Shown: positions 34,668 through 40,987, counted from the first letter of the stretch. The stretch: DNA of 64,000 bases from an uncultured Muribaculaceae bacterium (GCA_964396655.1 CAYNFP010000003.1:82177-146176), one strand, 5' to 3'. Numbers and translations: made by a program. The notes: generated by a model not told the origin, from the sequence alone.

Positions 34668-34898
34668 AATATCTCCTTTTTAATTAAAATAAAAACGCCC
34701 TATTAAAGGACGATTATTAATTCGTGGTACCACCTTAGTTTATTCTTAAATCTGTAACGTAGATATACGATTTTTTCTACTTATTTCAAAAAAATACATC
34801 AGAAGTGATTCTATATATAATTAATTGCTTATTTACACCATCCATAAGCTCTCTATAAATTTATTATATATACGTCTTCCTCATTTGTTTTCAAATAG
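34668..34898 (-). promoter_or_regulatory. T-box riboswitch leader of ileS
   Basis: Minus-strand AAGGTGGTACCACGAAT T-box motif at 34721-34737; terminator-like helix and U-run before the RBS. Confidence 0.75.
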
Positions 34899-34928
34899 AT
34901 TATACTATTTTTAGCAATTTATGTCAAT
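34899..34928 (-). promoter_or_regulatory. Sigma-A type promoter for the ileS T-box leader
   Basis: Minus-strand TTGACA-(18)-TATAAT exact hexamers. Confidence 0.5.
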
Positions 34929-34941
34929 TATAATATTCTTT

Positions 34942-35558
34942 TTAGCGATTCAGTCTTCTTATTAAATCATTTACTGGTTCATCATCTGTTGTAACTACAT
35001 AACGCTTGCTCTTTTTTTCTTCAAAAGTATTTAATTTTTTAATTTCAGGTAATTTTTCACTTTCTTTTTTAAATTCTATTGGGCATTGAGTTTTTATAAT
35101 ATTTTTTGCTTTTTCTAATGCTTTTTCTACTATTTCAATTTGCTCTTTAGTAATTTTTAAATTTTTGTGGTTGTTTTTCGATTGATTTTTCTTACTTTTT
35201 GCTTCGCCATATGAAGCCAAACAAGCAGTAGAAGCAAGTGAAGAAAAGAAAATGATAGCTCTTATAATAGAAGGGATTGCTTGCATACAGGTAATATAGT
35301 TTCTACTAATAAAGATAATTTAAAATCCCAATCATGTTTCCAAAGGTTTTTTATTATATCCATTATTTTAGTATTAGAATAATCGCATTTCCTTATTTCA
35401 CTTTCAAACTGAGTTTGCTGACTTCTTAGATAATCTAAATAATTTTCTAATTCTAGTACTTCTTTTACATTCTCACCGTCTACTTTAATAACCCCTTTAT
35501 CTGTTTCTACAAAAACTTCTCCATTCATTTGCATTATTTTAAAATTCATAATATACAC
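34942..35558 (-). pseudogene. Disrupted paralog (family B) of the 37193-37861 gene: internal deletion/frameshift removes the first TM helix
   Basis: Two overlapping ORFs (98 aa + 114 aa) together align to the N- and C-termini of the intact 222-aa paralog; N-terminal 45 aa are identical. Confidence 0.55.
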
Positions 35559-35608
35559 CTCATTTAAATTATATAATTAATTTTTTATTATTTCAATTTA
35601 ATTACATA

Positions 35609-36265
35609 TTATCTTCTATATCTTCTAACCATTGCTTCATCTGCTTCATTTTTAAGAGAATACTCAGTTCTTAAAGGAATTGAAATAGAGCCAGGTTTTT
35701 TTGCTACATTTTTTTCTGTTAAATCAGGTCTTGGTGTTTTTATAAATCCTTCTATTATATTTAACTCTTCTTGAGTTTTAATGATTAAATCTTTAAATTC
35801 TTGCAATTTTATGTGATTAACATTGGATTTATATCTGTTAACTATTGCTTTTGCAGCAATTGACAAAAAAGAAGCCATAGCAATAAGTGCCCCAGTTAGA
35901 ATTGCTCTTGTTTGGGTTATAAAATTAATAACATTATAAAAAGACTCTCCATTTATACTTAAAGATATTTCTGGCATTCTAAAAATCAAGAAGAAAATTA
36001 TACCAAAAATAATAGTTAATGGCTGTGCGAACATTAGAAACAATTTAGTTCCATAATTTTTTTTCATCATTGATTTTATTGATATTTCTAAAGAAAGAGA
36101 ATTTTTTTGAAGTTCTGTTTCTAATTTTTTTGTTTCTTTTTGAAGACACTCTATATAATTTTCTTTGTCAAGGATATCCTTGATATCATTACCTTTGACT
36201 TCAACAAAGCCTTCATCTGTTTGAACTATAATACCATCGGTACTCTCTATTATTTTATAATTCAT
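35609..36265 (-). CDS. Small membrane protein, paralog family A (N-terminal soluble domain, 2 TM helices, basic RRYRR C-terminus)
   Basis: 218 aa; intact; paralog of the 37912-38400 ORF and, in the N-domain, of the family-B genes and 39381-39977. Confidence 0.6.
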   Translation of the reverse strand: MNYKIIESTDGIIVQTDEGFVEVKGNDIKDILDKENYIECLQKETKKLETELQKNSLSLEISIKSMMKKNYGTKLFLMFAQPLTIIFGIIFFLIFRMPEISLSINGESFYNVINFITQTRAILTGALIAMASFLSIAAKAIVNRYKSNVNHIKLQEFKDLIIKTQEELNIIEGFIKTPRPDLTEKNVAKKPGSISIPLRTEYSLKNEADEAMVRRYRR

Positions 36266-36427
36266 AAACTCTCCTTTTATTTTTATTCATTAAATTTAAA
36301 AGAATTCACCTTATCGTTTTATCACTTATTATAATTTTATTTTCATCTTTAATATTTAATATTTCAAAATTTATAAATTTTTTTCCTATAGAATTTATTA
36401 TATAAACATTAAATTATCATGTCAATA

Positions 36428-36458
36428 AAATAAAAAAGAGATTTTATTTTAATCTCTT
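36428..36458 (-). terminator. Terminator overlapping the stop of the 232-aa coiled-coil membrane protein gene
   Basis: AAGAGATTttattttAATCTCTT hairpin plus T-run on the minus strand. Confidence 0.4.
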
Positions 36459-37147
36459 AATAAAACACGACTTGTTCTTTCTGCTATTTCTTCATCAGGA
36501 AATTCAACTAGATTTCTTTCTGATTCCAAACTTTTAATCGCTTCTGATCTAGCAGAGTCTATTCTTTGTAGTTTTGCGGTTTTCTTCTTTATAAGTTTAC
36601 CACAATATGTTATTATTGCTTCTAATTCTTTTGAATCAGTCTCCATTAATAATAATTCTTCTAGATATTTTTTTCTCTTTGTTTCTTCTTTTGAAATTTT
36701 AGAATCTACTTGTTCAATTGTTTTTGACTTTACTAATTTTCTTAAACTAGCTGTATTTATAAAATATTTTGCAATAAAATATGCATCAAAAGCAAGTAAT
36801 ACAGATCCAATTAAAGCTATAATAGCTAAAATTGCTGAACTTCCCAAAATTGATATTAATACAATTGCCAATAAAAACATACTTATTAGATTGCTAATTA
36901 CAATTCCTTTTTGCATTGAAAATTTGTGTTTATCAAATATTTTTGGAGCATTAATTAATGTTTTTTTCTCTAATTTTAGTTCTTCAATTTTATTTTCAAT
37001 TTGTATTAATTCTTCATTAATTGAATTTAAAAGACTTAATTTTTCAATAGTAGAATTCTTTTCTTCTTCTAACTCTTTTAAACTTTTTTTAATTTCTTCA
37101 ATTATCATTAAATATTTATCCATTTTTTTCTTCTCTCCCCTTTTCAA
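36449..37147 (-). CDS. Coiled-coil / 2-TM / coiled-coil membrane protein (232 aa)
   Basis: Heptad-rich E/K N- and C-terminal segments flanking two hydrophobic helices; same architecture as 38650-39354. Confidence 0.55.
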   Translation of the reverse strand: MKRGEKKKMDKYLMIIEEIKKSLKELEEEKNSTIEKLSLLNSINEELIQIENKIEELKLEKKTLINAPKIFDKHKFSMQKGIVISNLISMFLLAIVLISILGSSAILAIIALIGSVLLAFDAYFIAKYFINTASLRKLVKSKTIEQVDSKISKEETKRKKYLEELLLMETDSKELEAIITYCGKLIKKKTAKLQRIDSARSEAIKSLESERNLVEFPDEEIAERTSRVLLRD

Positions 37148-37160
37148 AATATTGCTTTAT

Positions 37161-37189
37161 ATTATACAACAATTTAAAAAGATTGTCAA
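37161..37189 (-). promoter_or_regulatory. Consensus sigma-A promoter driving the 232-aa membrane protein gene
   Basis: Minus-strand TTGACA-(17)-TATAAT, perfect consensus hexamers and spacing. Confidence 0.55.
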
Positions 37190-37192
37190 ATT

Positions 37193-37861
37193 TTAGCGAT
37201 TTAATCTTCTTATTAAACCATTTACTGGTTCATCATCTGTTGTAACTATATAACTATAACTCCAGTCCAAGTACTTCTTAAAAGTATTTAATTTTTCTAT
37301 TTCTGGCAATTTTTCAGTATCTTCTTTTAAAACTATAGGACAGTGGGTTTTTAAAATTTGATTTGCTTTTTCTAGTTCTTTCTCCACTATTTCAATTTGT
37401 TCTTCAGCTATTTTTATATTACGATGATACTCTTTTGATTTGTTTTTCTCTGATTTTGCTTCTGTATATAAAGATAAGCCGGCCCCCGAGAAAAATACTA
37501 CTAAAAAAAGTATAACTTTTATAATAGTGGGAAAGGCAAGCCACGTATTAAAGGCAAATACAAAGATCAAGGGAATTAAGATAAACCCTGCCATTATTCC
37601 CTCCAAGAGCGGCAGCATCTTAAATACCACACCACCACTTTTCCAATTATGTTTAATTATATCTATTATTTTAGTATCTGAAAAATCATTTCCGTATAAA
37701 TTTCTTTTAAACTGAATTTTCTGACTTTTTAGATAATCTAAATAATTTTCTAATTCTAGTACTTCTTTTACATTCTCACCATCTACTTTAATAACCCCTT
37801 TATCTGTTTCTACAAAAACTTCTCCATTCATTTGCATTATTTTAAAATTCATAATATACAC
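37193..37861 (-). CDS. Small membrane protein, paralog family B (N-terminal soluble domain, 2 TM helices, C-terminal DDEPVNGLIRRLNR)
   Basis: 222 aa; intact; N-terminal 45 aa identical to the 35262-35558 ORF. Confidence 0.6.
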   Translation of the reverse strand: MYIMNFKIMQMNGEVFVETDKGVIKVDGENVKEVLELENYLDYLKSQKIQFKRNLYGNDFSDTKIIDIIKHNWKSGGVVFKMLPLLEGIMAGFILIPLIFVFAFNTWLAFPTIIKVILFLVVFFSGAGLSLYTEAKSEKNKSKEYHRNIKIAEEQIEIVEKELEKANQILKTHCPIVLKEDTEKLPEIEKLNTFKKYLDWSYSYIVTTDDEPVNGLIRRLNR

Positions 37862-37911
37862 CTCATTTAAATTATATAATTAATTTTTTATTATTTCAAT
37901 TTAATTACATA

Positions 37912-38560
37912 TTATCTTCTATATCTTCTAACCATAGCTTCATCTACTTCATTTTCAAGAGAATAATAGGTTCTTAAAGGAGTTGAAATAGAACCAAGTT
38001 TTTTTACTATATTTTTTTCAACTAAATCAGGCCTTGGAGTTTTTACAAATCCTTCAACTTTACTAAGTTCTTCTTGAGTTTTAACTATTAAATCGTTAAA
38101 TTCTTGGAGTTTTATATGTTTAACATCAGAATCATATTTATCAACAATTGCTAACCCAGAAAGTGACAATAAAGGTGCCAGAACAACAAGTGAGCTTATT
38201 AAAACCGCTTTCACTTGTGTTATAAAATTAATTACATTATAAAAAGTTTCACCATTTATAGTTAAAGACGTTGTGGGCACTCTTAAAAGGGAAAATAAAA
38301 TTACACCAAAAATGATCGTTAATGGTTGCATAATAGTTAGAAGTAGTTTTACTCCCGAATTTTTTTTAATAATTAATTTTATTATTTCTATAACTTTCAT
38401 ATTAGAATAATCTTCTTTTTGGAGTTCTCTTTCTAATTTTTTAGCCGCTTTTTCAAGACATTCTATATAATTTTCTTTATCAAGGGCCCTCTTAATATCA
38501 CTACCTTGAACTTCAGCAAAGCCTTCACTTGTTTGAACTATAGTGCCATTAGACTTTCTA
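37912..38560 (-). pseudogene. Family-A paralog with N-terminal frameshift/stop; only the C-terminal 162 aa remain as an ORF
   Basis: Upstream 160 nt translate in frame to a family-A N-domain (GTIVQTSEGFAEVQGSDIK...ENYIECL), but the ATG-proximal reading frame hits TAG after 12 codons. Confidence 0.5.
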
Positions 38561-38649
38561 TTATTTTATTATTCATTATAACTCCCTTACGAAAATATTA
38601 TTATACTTGTTAAATGATTTGTCAAATTTTAATTAACAATCTCATTATA

Positions 38650-39354
38650 TTAAAGACGATGGGTATATGCTCCTGTTGTTCTTGATTTTTCAATTTCTGT
38701 TTCCATTGCATTAAATTGTTTTGTTTGTTCAGGAGTTAAAACTTCACATAATATTTCTTCAATAATTGAAGCTCTCATTTCTGTTTTACATTCTATTTCA
38801 TTTTCAAGGTCTTTAATTAAATTGCACAATCTGTAACATTCTTGTTCCAAAGTTTTAATTTCTTTATCACAATTCGTTAATTTTTGACTTAATCTTAATT
38901 CATTTTTTCCGTTTTCTTCTATATCTTTATTTAATTTGTCAATATTAGTGATTTTTACTAAATCCCTAAGATATTTTGTTTCTTTAAAATAATCAATTAC
39001 ACCCTCTGTTATGAATAATATTGGAATAATTATTAAATAGAATATTAAATGATTTACTGGAAAAGAAAATATTAAAAACATAATAATAACGAATAAAGCA
39101 ACTGCTCCACCTAAAATAGAATAAAATTTTGTTAAAAATTTCTTTTTTTCTTTTTTAATTTCTTTACTTCTTTCTATTAAACTCCTTTTTGATTTTAAAT
39201 CGCGTTCTTTTGATTCTACTTCATCATATGATTTTTTAATTTTCACTCTTTTTTTTCTTTTAGAGTCTAACAAAGATTCTTTTTTTGCTTTTTTGCTTTC
39301 TAAATCCCATTTTTCATCTTCTAATTTTCTAATTTCTTCTAATAATTTATCCAT
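38650..39354 (-). CDS. Coiled-coil / 2-TM / coiled-coil membrane protein (234 aa)
   Basis: Same architecture as 36449-37147; low sequence identity to it. Confidence 0.55.
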   Translation of the reverse strand: MDKLLEEIRKLEDEKWDLESKKAKKESLLDSKRKKRVKIKKSYDEVESKERDLKSKRSLIERSKEIKKEKKKFLTKFYSILGGAVALFVIIMFLIFSFPVNHLIFYLIIIPILFITEGVIDYFKETKYLRDLVKITNIDKLNKDIEENGKNELRLSQKLTNCDKEIKTLEQECYRLCNLIKDLENEIECKTEMRASIIEEILCEVLTPEQTKQFNAMETEIEKSRTTGAYTHRL

Positions 39355-39380
39355 GTAACCTCCTAATAAAAATTTTTATT

Positions 39381-39977
39381 TTAACTTCTTTTGCTACCCC
39401 TGCTTCTTTTTAAAGTCATTGATTTATTATCTTCTAATGCAATAGTTGGAGAATAAGGGCAATGAGAAAATGTTTCTATTTCTGTTCTTTCGATTTCTGG
39501 GCATTCTTTCTTTTCGTAATTTTTAATTTTTTCTAATTCTTTTAATTTTGATTCATATAATTCTTCACGCAATTTTATTGATTTATATAATTCTTTAATA
39601 TCAATAATAGGATTTATTACTAAACTCCAAATAGGGATTACCCCTACTATTATTATAAGAGTAATTGCAATCAATAATTTTGTAAATGTAAGTGAGAAAA
39701 GAAATAATATTCCCAAAACTGTTGCTAAAGAGAAAATAAATGAATGAGCTCTAAAAATAATATCTTTTTTAAATTTCATTTTAAATATTTCCATTAATTT
39801 ATCAGAATTAATTCCTTCTGGTAATCGTTTTTTTAAAAAATCTATTTTGTCTTTTAAATATTCACAATAATTTTCTAATTCTAAAGTTCTTTCTATATTT
39901 TCTCCAGTTATTTCATATGTCCCTTCATCAGTTTCAAGATACTTTTTTCCTGCAATCTTAATTATTTCGTTATTCAT
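39381..39977 (-). CDS. Small membrane protein with family A/B-like N-domain, 2 TM helices, coiled-coil basic C-terminus
   Basis: 198 aa; N-terminal TDEGTYEITGENIERTLELENYCEYL matches the N-domain shared by families A and B. Confidence 0.55.
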   Translation of the reverse strand: MNNEIIKIAGKKYLETDEGTYEITGENIERTLELENYCEYLKDKIDFLKKRLPEGINSDKLMEIFKMKFKKDIIFRAHSFIFSLATVLGILFLFSLTFTKLLIAITLIIIVGVIPIWSLVINPIIDIKELYKSIKLREELYESKLKELEKIKNYEKKECPEIERTEIETFSHCPYSPTIALEDNKSMTLKRSRGSKRS

Positions 39978-40052
39978 AAATATACTTCCTTTCTAAACGA
40001 TATTTATTATAAATTCTATATATATATTTGTCAAACAAAAAAATATGAATGT

Positions 40053-40493
40053 TTATTCATACTTATTTAAATCTATATCATCTATTTCATCTATAACTTG
40101 AAGTTGACTTTCAACAATTGCTCTAAGTCTCTTTTTAAAGAATCTTACATTTCTTTTTAATGTTTCTATATCATCTTCTGCTTTTTCAGCTTTCATTAAA
40201 GCATCATTAATTATTCTATTAGAGTTCCTTCTAGCTTCTTGCATCATTGAATCCGCTTCCTGTCTTGCTAATGTTTTAATCTTTTCACAAGTTTCTTCAG
40301 CAGTAAATATTGCTTTATTTAGAGTACTTTCTAATTTTTCATAATGTTCTAATTTTTCTTTTAATCTTAAATTTTCAGTTTCTGTGGCTTTACTTTTATT
40401 AAGTAAAAACTCATAGTTTTTTATGATATCATCAAGTGCTTTATTTACTTGATATTTATCATATCCACGAAAAACCGTATTAAATTTTTCCAT
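40053..40493 (-). CDS. divIVA: DivIVA-domain cell division protein
   Basis: N-terminal F..VFRGYDKYQV DivIVA signature then coiled coil; downstream of sepF as in the dcw cluster. Confidence 0.8.
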   Translation of the reverse strand: MEKFNTVFRGYDKYQVNKALDDIIKNYEFLLNKSKATETENLRLKEKLEHYEKLESTLNKAIFTAEETCEKIKTLARQEADSMMQEARRNSNRIINDALMKAEKAEDDIETLKRNVRFFKKRLRAIVESQLQVIDEIDDIDLNKYE

Positions 40494-40517: not shown

Positions 40518-40913
40518 TTACCATTCTGTATCTTCTGAAGTAGTCTTTTTGCCTTCTTCTTCTGTCATTTTTCCTTGAACAGCAATATTCTTAGGTGTGC
40601 ACAAATAAATTCCTGCTCCTAATTTTTCCATACTGCCTCCAATAGCGTACAAAGTTCCAGTTAAAAAATCAAGGATTCTTTTTGATTGATCACTAGTTAC
40701 CCTTTTAAAGTTAACAACTACTGCATTTCTATTTTTTAAATGATCTGCAATCTGCTGACTTTCAGAATATGCTCTTGGTTCAACCAAAATCATGCTATTA
40801 CCAGCATCTGTCATCTTTTTTACTGTTTCATCACTATTTACTGAATAATATTCCTCCTCTTGATTCTCTCCATCATCAGGATTAAATATTTTTCTTAATT
40901 TACCTAATGCCAT
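40518..40913 (-). CDS. sepF: Cell division protein SepF
   Basis: 131 aa; conserved C-terminal domain (AVVVNF..V..D.SKRILDFL.G..YA..G). Confidence 0.85.
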   Translation of the reverse strand: MALGKLRKIFNPDDGENQEEEYYSVNSDETVKKMTDAGNSMILVEPRAYSESQQIADHLKNRNAVVVNFKRVTSDQSKRILDFLTGTLYAIGGSMEKLGAGIYLCTPKNIAVQGKMTEEEGKKTTSEDTEW

Positions 40914-40987
40914 GACTTTTCCTCCGTATCTTTCTACTATAAAATTATTGTACCATAAATCAAGATAAAATGTAAATATCTTTATAT

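Follow-up and report, generated by a model that had tools for sequence, protein, structure and literature searches.

What fills the interval between divIVA and ileS in this uncultured low-GC gut bacterium, and what could its products do? Seven coding units lie there on the minus strand, running from divIVA to the ileS leader (Table 1), with sepF, divIVA, ileS, comEA and comEC as neighbours in the window (the whole 64-kb stretch of DNA analysed). Adjacency of divIVA and ileS is an ancestral Firmicutes feature, belonging to the DCW2 cluster ylmE-sepF-ylmG-ylmH-divIVA-ileS (PMC8136486), which agrees with the statement in an earlier note on this DNA that divIVA is directly followed by ileS in related Firmicutes; the array therefore interrupts that adjacency. 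The division cluster of the window also lacks ylmG (canonically 2-TM) and ylmH.

Array composition and protein architecture

Of the array's units, five are intact genes and two are frameshifted pseudogenes, so that the single array of seven minus-strand genes described earlier holds for its seven units and their positions, with B2 and A2 now recognized as pseudogenes. By sequence, the members appear to represent two unrelated families, class I (A, B and C) and class II (D1 and D2); the earlier view that all seven are paralogous had to be given up, homology between D and A/B/C being undetectable (hhalign probability 2%). D1 starts 27 nt past the stop codon of C and is probably co-transcribed with it.

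Table 1 Features of the divIVA-ileS interval, in window coordinates, ordered from divIVA to ileS.
Feature	Coordinates	Strand	Description and support
divIVA	40053..40493	-	Upstream boundary; Pfam DivIVA, E 1e-28
Promoter of C	40006..40034	-	Perfect TTGACA-N17-TATAAT
C	39381..39977	-	Class I head-hairpin-tail, 198 aa, intact; ORF and Shine-Dalgarno, AF2 model
D1	38650..39354	-	Class II coiled-coil/TM-hairpin/coiled-coil, 234 aa; AF2
Promoter of B2	38597..38625	-	11/12 consensus
B2	37912..38576	-	Class I pseudogene; three-frame translation and DNA alignment to B1
Promoter of A1	37871-37899		11/12 consensus
A1	37193..37852	-	Class I, 219 aa, intact
Promoter of D2	37161..37189	-	Perfect consensus
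D2	36449..37123	-	Class II, 224 aa, intact; closest paralogue of D' (40% aa identity)
Promoter of B1	36397..36425	-	Perfect consensus
B1	35609..36265	-	Class I, 218 aa, intact; conserved ~25-aa loop between TM helices
Promoter of A2	35568-35596		11/12 consensus
A2	34942..35549	-	Class I pseudogene; DNA alignment to A1 and three-frame translation
Promoter of ileS leader	34899..34927	-	Perfect consensus
ileS T-box leader	34703..34893	-	Downstream boundary of the variable slot; Rfam RF00230, 104 bits
ileS leader terminator	34696-34712		

Structurally, A, B and C are homologous end to end (BLASTP E-values of 7e-15 for A1-C, 3e-10 for A1-B1 and 2e-5 for B1-C) and share one order of parts: a three-strand beta-meander and helix, a TM hairpin, a cytoplasmic amphipathic helix, a K-x-x-x-P motif and a basic C-terminal tail. 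The N-terminal beta-meander/helix, hereafter the head, spans ~45 aa with the motif T-D/E-E/K-G ... G ... L..ENY...L, and its proposed sharing by A, B and the 198-aa gene C is borne out by residues invariant in all three (M1, N2, I5, T16, G19, G25, L32, E35, Y37 and L41). The two TM helices and charged tail reported earlier were likewise recovered, the hairpin beginning near residue 73 in every class I protein and the tails being basic; K/R-rich sequence on both flanks of the hairpin predicts an N-in/C-in topology. External loops are 2-25 aa long and the bulk of the protein mass is cytoplasmic; the only sizeable extracellular loop, that of B, is conserved rather than diversified in sequence, which therefore argues against a surface arms race. 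The AF2 model of C, of moderate quality (pLDDT 64), places strands at residues 4-8, 11-16 and 19-25 (these three head strands at pLDDT 60-70), a helix at 28-50 and the helices of the TM hairpin at 58-95 and 99-151.

Class II proteins form a long antiparallel coiled coil, with a TM hairpin linking the two strands (AF2 helices 2-97, 102-130 and 138-205), and the interleaved coiled-coil/2-TM/coiled-coil pair was thus found as claimed (pLDDT 79). D1 and D2 are 28% identical (E 2e-4), and Foldseek matches to D1 were generic antiparallel coiled coils only.

A variable slot with a clade-restricted family

Comparison with relatives shows a chromosomal slot of variable content between divIVA and ileS, filled by a clade-restricted orphan family in 1 to 7 copies. 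Four genus-level relatives share a class I gene immediately upstream of the ileS T-box. In the sister lineage (L003) the slot contains only C', the orthologue of C, and D', with 46% amino-acid identity for C/C' and 40% for D2/D', between flanks that are 93% identical at the nucleotide level (SepF 100%, DivIVA 99% and IleS 96%); BLASTN homology with this lineage runs from the divIVA side to position 39804, through the head of C, and resumes at 34936. In L001 a single B-type gene, whose product P0003 is the orthologue of B1 (51% identical), lies directly upstream of the T-box, and in L009 this place is taken by an uncharacterised 502-aa protein together with C'', at the same site as a candidate defence gene (PADLOC PDC-S02, a YhcG nuclease). 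The upstream neighbour is not divIVA in L001 or L009, and P0017 is located elsewhere, leaving divIVA next to the family in only two of the 4-5 contexts, the window and L003. A single class I gene under its own consensus promoter of sigma-70 type is the minimal unit, and D is an optional partner found only in the window genome and the sister lineage.

These comparisons qualify the earlier idea of a lineage-specific insertion: the class I gene upstream of the T-box is shared with relatives, so the array did not arise as a single insertion, and it is the extra five units (about 3.4 kb, by duplication) that are specific to this genome. Similarly, when the junction was checked in relatives as had been proposed, the class I gene was kept there, and the full seven-unit array was seen in the window only.

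Duplication, gene conversion and decay

The array expanded when a D-B-A unit of ~2.3 kb was duplicated in tandem. A conversion tract at 37704..38003 on the minus strand, paired with 35401-35700, is 95% identical between the units (core 97-99%) and spans the 3' end of B, the intergenic promoter and the 5' head of A; outside it the two units are 55-83% identical. Repeat spacing shifts from 2303 to 2257 nt at the A2 deletion. Decay has been complementary, with B broken in one unit and A in the other, which leaves an intact set of one A, one B, one C and two D. In B2, which starts at ATG 38576, codon 9 has lost 1 nt (about 38552) and the shifted frame meets a stop at codon 12, leaving a 162-aa ORF (37912-38400) that corresponds to the headless C-terminal portion; this frameshift recurs in independent Logan assemblies, with identical sequence in contigs L006 and L007. 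In A2, 43 nt are missing within TM1, which leaves two ORFs, 35262-35549 (95 aa) and 34942-35286 (114 aa), a lesion seen in the window only. The ancestral state of this genome's array was a C+D pair, followed by D-B-A tandem duplication, gene conversion and decay.

Transcriptionally, exact TTGACA-N17-TATAAT sites occur four times in the 64-kb window, all within the locus, against 0.1 expected by chance, and consensus promoters are also kept in relatives upstream of their family members.

Divergence relative to the flanks

Between the window and the sister lineage, flanking genes show dN of 0-0.02 and omega of 0-0.06, compared with dN 0.45 and omega 0.48 for C/C' and dN 0.55 and omega 1.04 for D2/D'. 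Array dN is thus 20-150x that of the flanks at omega 0.5-1.0; the omega values come from the NG86 method, which is unreliable for AT-rich sequences that are 40% identical. Constraint is stronger on the head than on the remaining protein (omega 0.26 versus 0.58), and ORFs of 200-234 codons remain open in DNA of 24% GC. Coiled-coil and TM segments under weak constraint could also give high omega.

Searches for known families

An exhaustive HMMER scan of 1.84 billion representative proteins returned 12 matches at E<=1e-3, in fewer than 10 related clusters, all from the same genome or from relatives of ~25% GC with the exception of two NACHT repeat proteins; word-index searches found the genome's own proteins, P0003 and P0007, and no others. 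No significant match was found for the array proteins in Pfam, NCBIfam, PHROGs or PADLOC, and no characterised family emerged from PDB sequence searches or from Foldseek against PDB and BFVD, as the earlier note had anticipated. That note had named two outcomes that would count against it, membership of a characterised family and carriage on phages or plasmids; both were looked for and neither was found, and 50,697 phage genomes, 72,556 plasmids, IMG/VR and BFVD all failed to yield a relative. Around the slot, searches for tRNA, integrase, prophage genes and flanking repeats were negative, and slot GC equals flank GC. PADLOC matches were all at E>=8e-4 apart from one of D2 to LeoBC (8e-6, 23 bits), rejected as a compositional match over the D2 coiled coil. 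PHROG matches were all at E>=0.001, those to phage lysis and exclusion families in PHROG or Pfam were no better than about 0.002-0.01, none of the seven members listed YGGT/YlmG (PF02325) at E<=5, and Reg_prop (PF07494) matched no family member.

The two exceptions, the NACHT/STAND proteins P0015 and P0016, were matched by the head (E 1e-6 over 9 stretches, and 1.5e-4). Their extracytoplasmic parts contain propeller-type ~36-aa repeats, weakly Reg_prop-like (P0016 against PF07494, E 0.0035 at best), and the class I head aligns to one 36-aa unit with an hhalign probability of 92.8% (E 3.9e-7, 34 columns). In contrast to these repeats, which come in 10-13 tandem copies, the head occurs once; its predicted location is cytoplasmic, it is joined to a TM hairpin, and it has a helix in place of the last strand. 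The likeness may also reflect convergence of a short beta-hairpin motif.

Possible functions

Judging from sequence and structure comparisons, the array proteins seem to fit no described family among the resources searched, and our best guess at their role is held with low confidence. Tentatively, and as somewhat less than an even prospect, we posit a diversifying accessory membrane module with a conflict or immunity role rather than one in core division, because of the extreme locus-specific divergence, the omega of 0.5-1 with open frames, the copy-number turnover and the candidate defence nuclease in a relative. Divergence, turnover, pseudogenes and sigma-A-type consensus promoters speak for the alternative raised in the earlier note, an evolving immunity family. 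Several observations count against a conflict role: no defence, toxin, immunity or holin model was matched significantly; the neighbouring genes include no sensor, enzyme or toxin partner; the family is vertical in one small clade and almost always at one chromosomal site, whereas typical defence genes spread horizontally; and divIVA adjacency in two lineages fits a division role.

The main rival, also raised in the earlier note and in our view unlikely though still a serious contender, is that the proteins are division or sporulation accessories, clade-specific membrane anchors or regulators that partner DivIVA or SepF at the poles or septum. On this reading a conserved division protein of the cytoplasm would be bound by the head, while the hairpin and basic tail would provide attachment to the membrane. 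The genes resemble the small DCW2 proteins (ylmG/YGGT, ylmH) and DivIVA partners in their sepF-divIVA-ileS position at the tail of the cluster (PMC8136486), directly after divIVA in the window and L003, and in 2-TM topology; both termini are on the cytoplasmic side, where DivIVA acts; the absence of ylmG and ylmH from the cluster and the retention of one intact copy per type also fit; and conservation of the head in all paralogues suggests a common conserved partner. However, DCW2 genes are conserved across Firmicutes, whereas the array family is clade-restricted, hypervariable and of variable copy number, and neither its presence nor its synteny with divIVA is conserved Firmicutes-wide, the family's few clusters coming from 1.84e9 representatives. 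Absence of divIVA adjacency outside two contexts, identities of only 46% and 40% in a pair of lineages with DivIVA and SepF at 99-100%, the pseudogenes, the lack of any YGGT or other division-family match, and promoters of sigma-A consensus rather than sporulation type likewise speak against it.

Firmicutes carry tandem immunity-gene arrays, for example beside staphylococcal T7SS toxins. By analogy, the locus could be an orphan immunity array whose tandem paralogues would shield the membrane from membrane-acting toxins or bacteriocins of competitors, a rather improbable reading that accommodates the diverged tandem paralogues with pseudogenes, the strain-variable, high-turnover slot, the omega of 0.5-1, the small membrane products and the constitutive promoters. 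Unlike such arrays, this one has no toxin, bacteriocin, T7SS or ABC-export genes near it in the window and no sequence relationship to known immunity families (homology checked by Pfam only), and its proteins are mostly cytoplasmic with short external loops.

Very unlikely, in our judgement, is a divergent SLATT-type 2TM pore-forming effector, the remnant of or partner to a nucleotide- or RT-based defence. Residues 72-158 of C weakly match SLATT_6 (PF18169; Pfam/NCBIfam, E 0.015) and a PADLOC CBASS 2TM effector model (E 0.004), C' weakly matches an RT-associated SLATT model (E 0.013), and hydropathy and AF2 indicate two TM helices with flanking helices, as described for SLATT proteins (PMC9226505). 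Size (~200 aa), the combination of a TM hairpin with cytoplasmic helices and a place in fast-turnover loci are points in common. Yet C scores 15.3 bits against a gathering threshold of 27.1 (Pfam) and 15 against 100 (NCBIfam), only one of seven members matches SLATT_6, weak matches of this kind are common for TM-rich segments, SMODS, SLOG, TIR and RT genes are absent nearby, PADLOC finds no partner, and neither the beta-meander head nor the basic tail is characteristic of SLATT. Least probable and largely refuted is that the genes are ordinary mobile cargo left by a prophage or plasmid (a holin/antiholin or superinfection-exclusion gene, for example) or non-functional ORFs in decay. Although two of seven units are pseudogenes in a variable slot, PHROG holins and spanins match weakly (E about 0.01) and phage holins, antiholins and exclusion proteins are also small with a TM hairpin and charged termini, the family sits among chromosomal core genes without lysin or prophage context or signs of integration, is absent from the phage, plasmid and viral collections, keeps long ORFs open in four lineages, has both Shine-Dalgarno sites and consensus promoters, and has a head under purifying selection.

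Returning to an accessory conflict or immunity module, class I and II proteins would be expressed constitutively and strongly and would insert with both ends in the cytoplasm; the conserved head could mediate oligomerisation and, as it resembles a single propeller-type blade, may therefore need partners to fold. Class I proteins and D might then form cytoplasm-facing membrane assemblies that, under diversifying selection, perhaps serve in membrane perturbation, exclusion or immunity. A more specific picture, which we think improbable, is that single-blade heads, each unable to fold by itself, of 5-8 subunits (possibly mixing A, B and C) close into a cytoplasmic propeller ring, with the hairpins bundled as a 10-16-helix membrane pore or platform and D as gating or scaffold, kept as a diversifying locus in the otherwise invariant divIVA-ileS junction. 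If this propeller ring proved real, it would add a type of bacterial membrane assembly not described before, either a self-contained abortive-infection or exclusion effector or a DivIVA-linked division device.

Gene content of the divIVA-ileS interval

Adjacency of divIVA and ileS is a conserved Firmicutes feature belonging to the DCW2 cluster (PMC8136486), and, as the earlier note proposed, it is interrupted here by an array of small membrane-protein genes, each unit of which has a Shine-Dalgarno sequence and which has a GC content (22-27% throughout) equal to that of its flanks. The array had been counted as seven paralogous genes. The A, B and C proteins (class I) are indeed full-length paralogues with one architecture, since BLASTP similarity is significant well beyond their ~45-aa N-terminal head (A1-C, 7e-15; A1-B1, 3e-10; B1-C, 2e-5), and the shared head is real, with M1, N2, I5, T16, G19, G25, L32, E35, Y37 and L41 invariant in a six-sequence alignment. 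However, two of the seven are pseudogenes, and the coiled-coil D proteins (class II) are not detectably related to A, B or C, their homology being rejected at an hhalign probability of 2%. B2 has a stop at codon 12 after a 1-nt deletion at codon 9, so that a 162-aa ORF previously taken for a gene is its headless remainder, and A2 is split into two ORFs by a 43-nt deletion in TM1; the B2 lesion also occurs in independent Logan assemblies, and the A2 lesion in the window alone. D1 and D2 share a weak relationship (28% identity, E 2e-4). Given these lesions and the lack of detectable homology between D and A, B or C, the locus comprises two families, with five genes intact and two reduced to pseudogenes, which leaves the original observation largely right, with corrections on B2, A2 and D1/D2.

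Features of the divIVA-ileS region in listed gene order
Feature	Coordinates	Strand	Product or evidence
glyQS		minus	most upstream gene listed, followed by sepF
sepF	40518-40913	minus	Pfam SepF 4e-26
divIVA	40053-40493	minus	Pfam DivIVA 1e-28
C	39977-39381	minus	198 aa
D1	39354-38650	minus	234 aa
B2 pseudogene	38576-37912	minus	class I
A1	37852-37193	minus	219 aa
D2	37123-36449	minus	224 aa
B1	36265-35609	minus	218 aa
A2 pseudogene	35549-34942	minus	class I
ileS T-box leader	34893-34703	minus	Rfam 104 bits
ileS	34667-31578	minus	follows the T-box leader

In the window, the division-cluster tail at 40518-42373 (minus strand) consists of glyQS-sepF-divIVA; ylmE, ylmG and ylmH, which usually surround sepF in the DCW2 cluster of Firmicutes, are missing from this position. 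Two adjoining genes of 280 and 275 aa with no Pfam match lie between uvrC and glyQS (42424-44172, minus strand), and a second T-box leader (22239-22420, minus strand, 97.6 bits) precedes a 345-aa gene at 21169-22206.

Architecture and predicted structure

Structurally, class I proteins consist of the head, a linker helix, a TM hairpin from near residue 73, a cytoplasmic helix, a KTPRP/KTHCP/KKECP motif and a basic tail (RRYRR, RRLNR or KRSRGSKRS). The hairpin is K/R-rich on both flanks with a loop of 2-25 aa, hence the predicted N-in/C-in topology. An AF2 model of C (pLDDT 64) has strands at 4-8, 11-16 and 19-25, a helix at 28-50, and hairpin helices at 58-95 and 99-151, with the tail disordered. 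That of D1 (pLDDT 79 overall, >90 in the N- and C-terminal helices) runs from a helix at 2-97 into TM1, through TM2 (102-130), to helices at 138-205 and 208-233, and predicts an antiparallel coiled coil closed by the TM hairpin. Foldseek searches with C gave best E-values of 1 against PDB (CdvA filament, TM-score 0.18) and 0.28 against BFVD; D1 matched generic coiled coils alone in PDB (SMC arms, chemoreceptors, AhlB-type; E>=0.065).

A parallel to the head comes from P0015 and P0016, two proteins of ~1000 aa that combine a signal peptide, 10-13 tandem ~36-aa repeats of propeller-like character (weak Reg_prop signal), a TM segment and a NACHT NTPase. Built into a profile, the repeats align with the class I head across 34 columns (hhalign 92.8%, E 3.9e-7). 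The head thus resembles one unit of a propeller-type repeat, and this may hint at oligomerisation.

Database searches

The proteins form an orphan, clade-restricted family of cytoplasm-facing membrane-hairpin proteins. A word-indexed search of 5.8 billion proteins returned the genome's own proteins, P0003 (222 aa) and the fragment P0007 alone, and nothing past D1 and D2 for D. Scanned exhaustively with a HMMER profile, 1.84 billion representatives yielded 12 hits at E<=1e-3. Apart from proteins of the genome itself, these comprise C' (P0012) and C'' (P0013) from relatives, the two NACHT proteins, and P0017, a remote 256-aa protein of the same architecture (E 3.5e-4). Scans of all array proteins and relatives against Pfam, NCBIfam, PHROGs and PADLOC found nothing at or near threshold; the view that the family is uncharacterised stands against every library searched. 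Sub-threshold, inconsistent matches (SLATT_6, Halogen_Hydrol, DUF948, DUF2207_C, LeoBC/LmuB coiled coil, Cas6b) were set aside, as were VAMP2/VAMP8, the best PDB sequence-profile matches (E 0.004-0.02), which reflect composition and architecture, a helix running into a TM segment, and not homology. SLATT membership was likewise rejected (15 bits against a 27-bit cut-off, one of seven members matching, no partner genes). Nothing on genes of the divIVA-ileS interval turned up in the literature. The organism is present in samples of the SRR8925774 series and in SRR19071532.

Mobile or phage cargo can essentially be discounted: no relatives were found in phage genomes, plasmids, IMG/VR or two scans of JGI metagenomes, no tRNAs near the array, and no Rfam families other than the T-box.

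Comparison with relatives

Across relatives, all on ~25% GC contigs, the divIVA/ileS junction is a variable slot. The sister-lineage locus L003 (L004 and L005 are the same) reads sepF-divIVA-C'(200 aa)-D'(233 aa)-T-box-ileS; its flanks are 93% identical to the window in nucleotides (SepF 100%, DivIVA 99%, IleS 96%, T-box 98%), and homology stops at 39804, inside C just past the head, and resumes at 34936. In L001 (T-box 88% to the window) the T-box is directly preceded by a single B-type gene, upstream of which lies a divergent gene. L009 (IleS 81% to the window) carries, in this order, the gene of a 502-aa protein, C'', the T-box, a YhcG nuclease gene and ileS, and the remote family member P0017 (L013) has an unrelated context. 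From this comparison, having a class I gene immediately before the ileS leader is ancestral to this small clade; divIVA adjacency is not universal among relatives, and D is an optional partner.

Some of these loci call for comment. The metagenomic contig L001 is chimeric at 1500-2793, where GC rises from 0.25 to 0.40-0.49 inside ileS and IleS switches to an unrelated type after ~residue 95, and positions 1-1620 alone are usable. The GTDB species-representative scan returned one locus, L015, on the same contig as L009; it is binned in an 'uncultured Muribaculaceae' MAG, which is implausible given a GC of 25.7%, a T-box and an ileS of Firmicutes type, and mis-binning is suggested. In the L009 stretch 3024-4276 the nuclease gene (YhcG/DUF1016 PDDEXK) has the ileS T-box leader (3024-3215) on one side and the start of ileS (4276) on the other, so that this accessory nuclease is apparently under tRNA-Ile-sensing control. 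The 502-aa gene (858-2366) has no Pfam match, a weak PADLOC HORMA match (E 0.0045) and no homologue in the window; only 13 nt separate its end from C'', with which it probably shares a transcript. The window has its own 295-aa YhcG-like PDDEXK nuclease (35% identical to that of L009), adjoining a 288-aa tyrosine recombinase downstream of comEC (the two at 26900-28676, minus strand); the pair may represent a further small accessory insertion, unless the recombinase is xerC/xerD.

Promoters, duplication and evolutionary rates

Exactly four perfect TTGACA-N17-TATAAT sites occur in the 64-kb window (0.1 expected by chance), and all four fall within the 5-kb locus (34899-40034), one each before C, D2, B1 and the ileS leader; sites matching 11/12 consensus positions precede B2, A1 and A2. 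In relatives, C', D', P0017 and the B gene of L001 likewise keep exact sites in front of them. The enrichment concerns exact-consensus sites only, total promoter-like sites not being above chance (42 found, 41 expected). With the T-box terminator as the sole terminator-like site on the coding strand, these promoters predict strong vegetative, gene-by-gene transcription.

Evolutionarily, the array has expanded via duplication, conversion and decay. Direct repeats spaced 2251-2312 nt apart show that a D-B-A unit was duplicated in tandem. Identity between the two B-A blocks is 55-83% outside one tract (37961-37761), which matches the second unit at 97-99% across the 3' end of B, the A promoter and the head of A, and which is a recent gene-conversion tract. 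B is broken and A intact in unit 1, B intact and A broken in unit 2, a complementary pattern of decay that speaks for selection to retain a functional copy of both.

Divergence is fast and specific to the locus, with a constrained head. By NG86, which is rough at such divergence and base composition, flanking genes have dN 0-0.02, dS 0.12-0.33 and omega 0-0.06, against dN 0.45, dS 0.94 and omega 0.48 for C versus C' (head 0.26, rest 0.58), dN 0.55, dS 0.53 and omega 1.04 for D2 versus D', and omega 0.47 for B1 versus B2. The family evolves 20-150 times faster than neighbour genes, and the contrast with the flanks is robust despite the rough estimates. Coding is maintained, as ORFs of 200-234 codons stay open where stop codons are frequent.

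Functional interpretation

Open frames, the constrained head and consensus promoters indicate that the family is probably functional. We tentatively posit, at rather less than even confidence, that the proteins may assemble into membrane oligomers serving an accessory role in conflict or immunity, because of their turnover and omega of 0.5-1 with frames kept open, weak but recurring 2TM-effector-like matches, and the L009 nuclease at the same site, a PADLOC candidate defence hit (PDC-S02, E 5e-130). Against this stand several points: no partner gene, no sign of horizontal spread and no significant match to a model were found, and B has an external loop that is conserved. The main rival, a DivIVA-linked division accessory, fits the position and topology but sits poorly with the hypervariability and inconsistent synteny, and we consider it unlikely. 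An orphan immunity array directed against membrane-acting toxins or bacteriocins is quite improbable.

The novelty is that of a protein family and its architecture, not of a mechanism. Orphan families are common in uncultured AT-rich gut bacteria; unusual here are the location, rate contrast, promoter density and single-blade head, all directly testable. If functional, the array would represent a protein family and membrane architecture without a described relative, placed at a gene junction that ranks among the most conserved in Firmicutes, and it raises the questions of whether the division-cluster tail may host a conflict or immunity hotspot, and whether a single-blade head on a TM hairpin could build oligomeric membrane assemblies.
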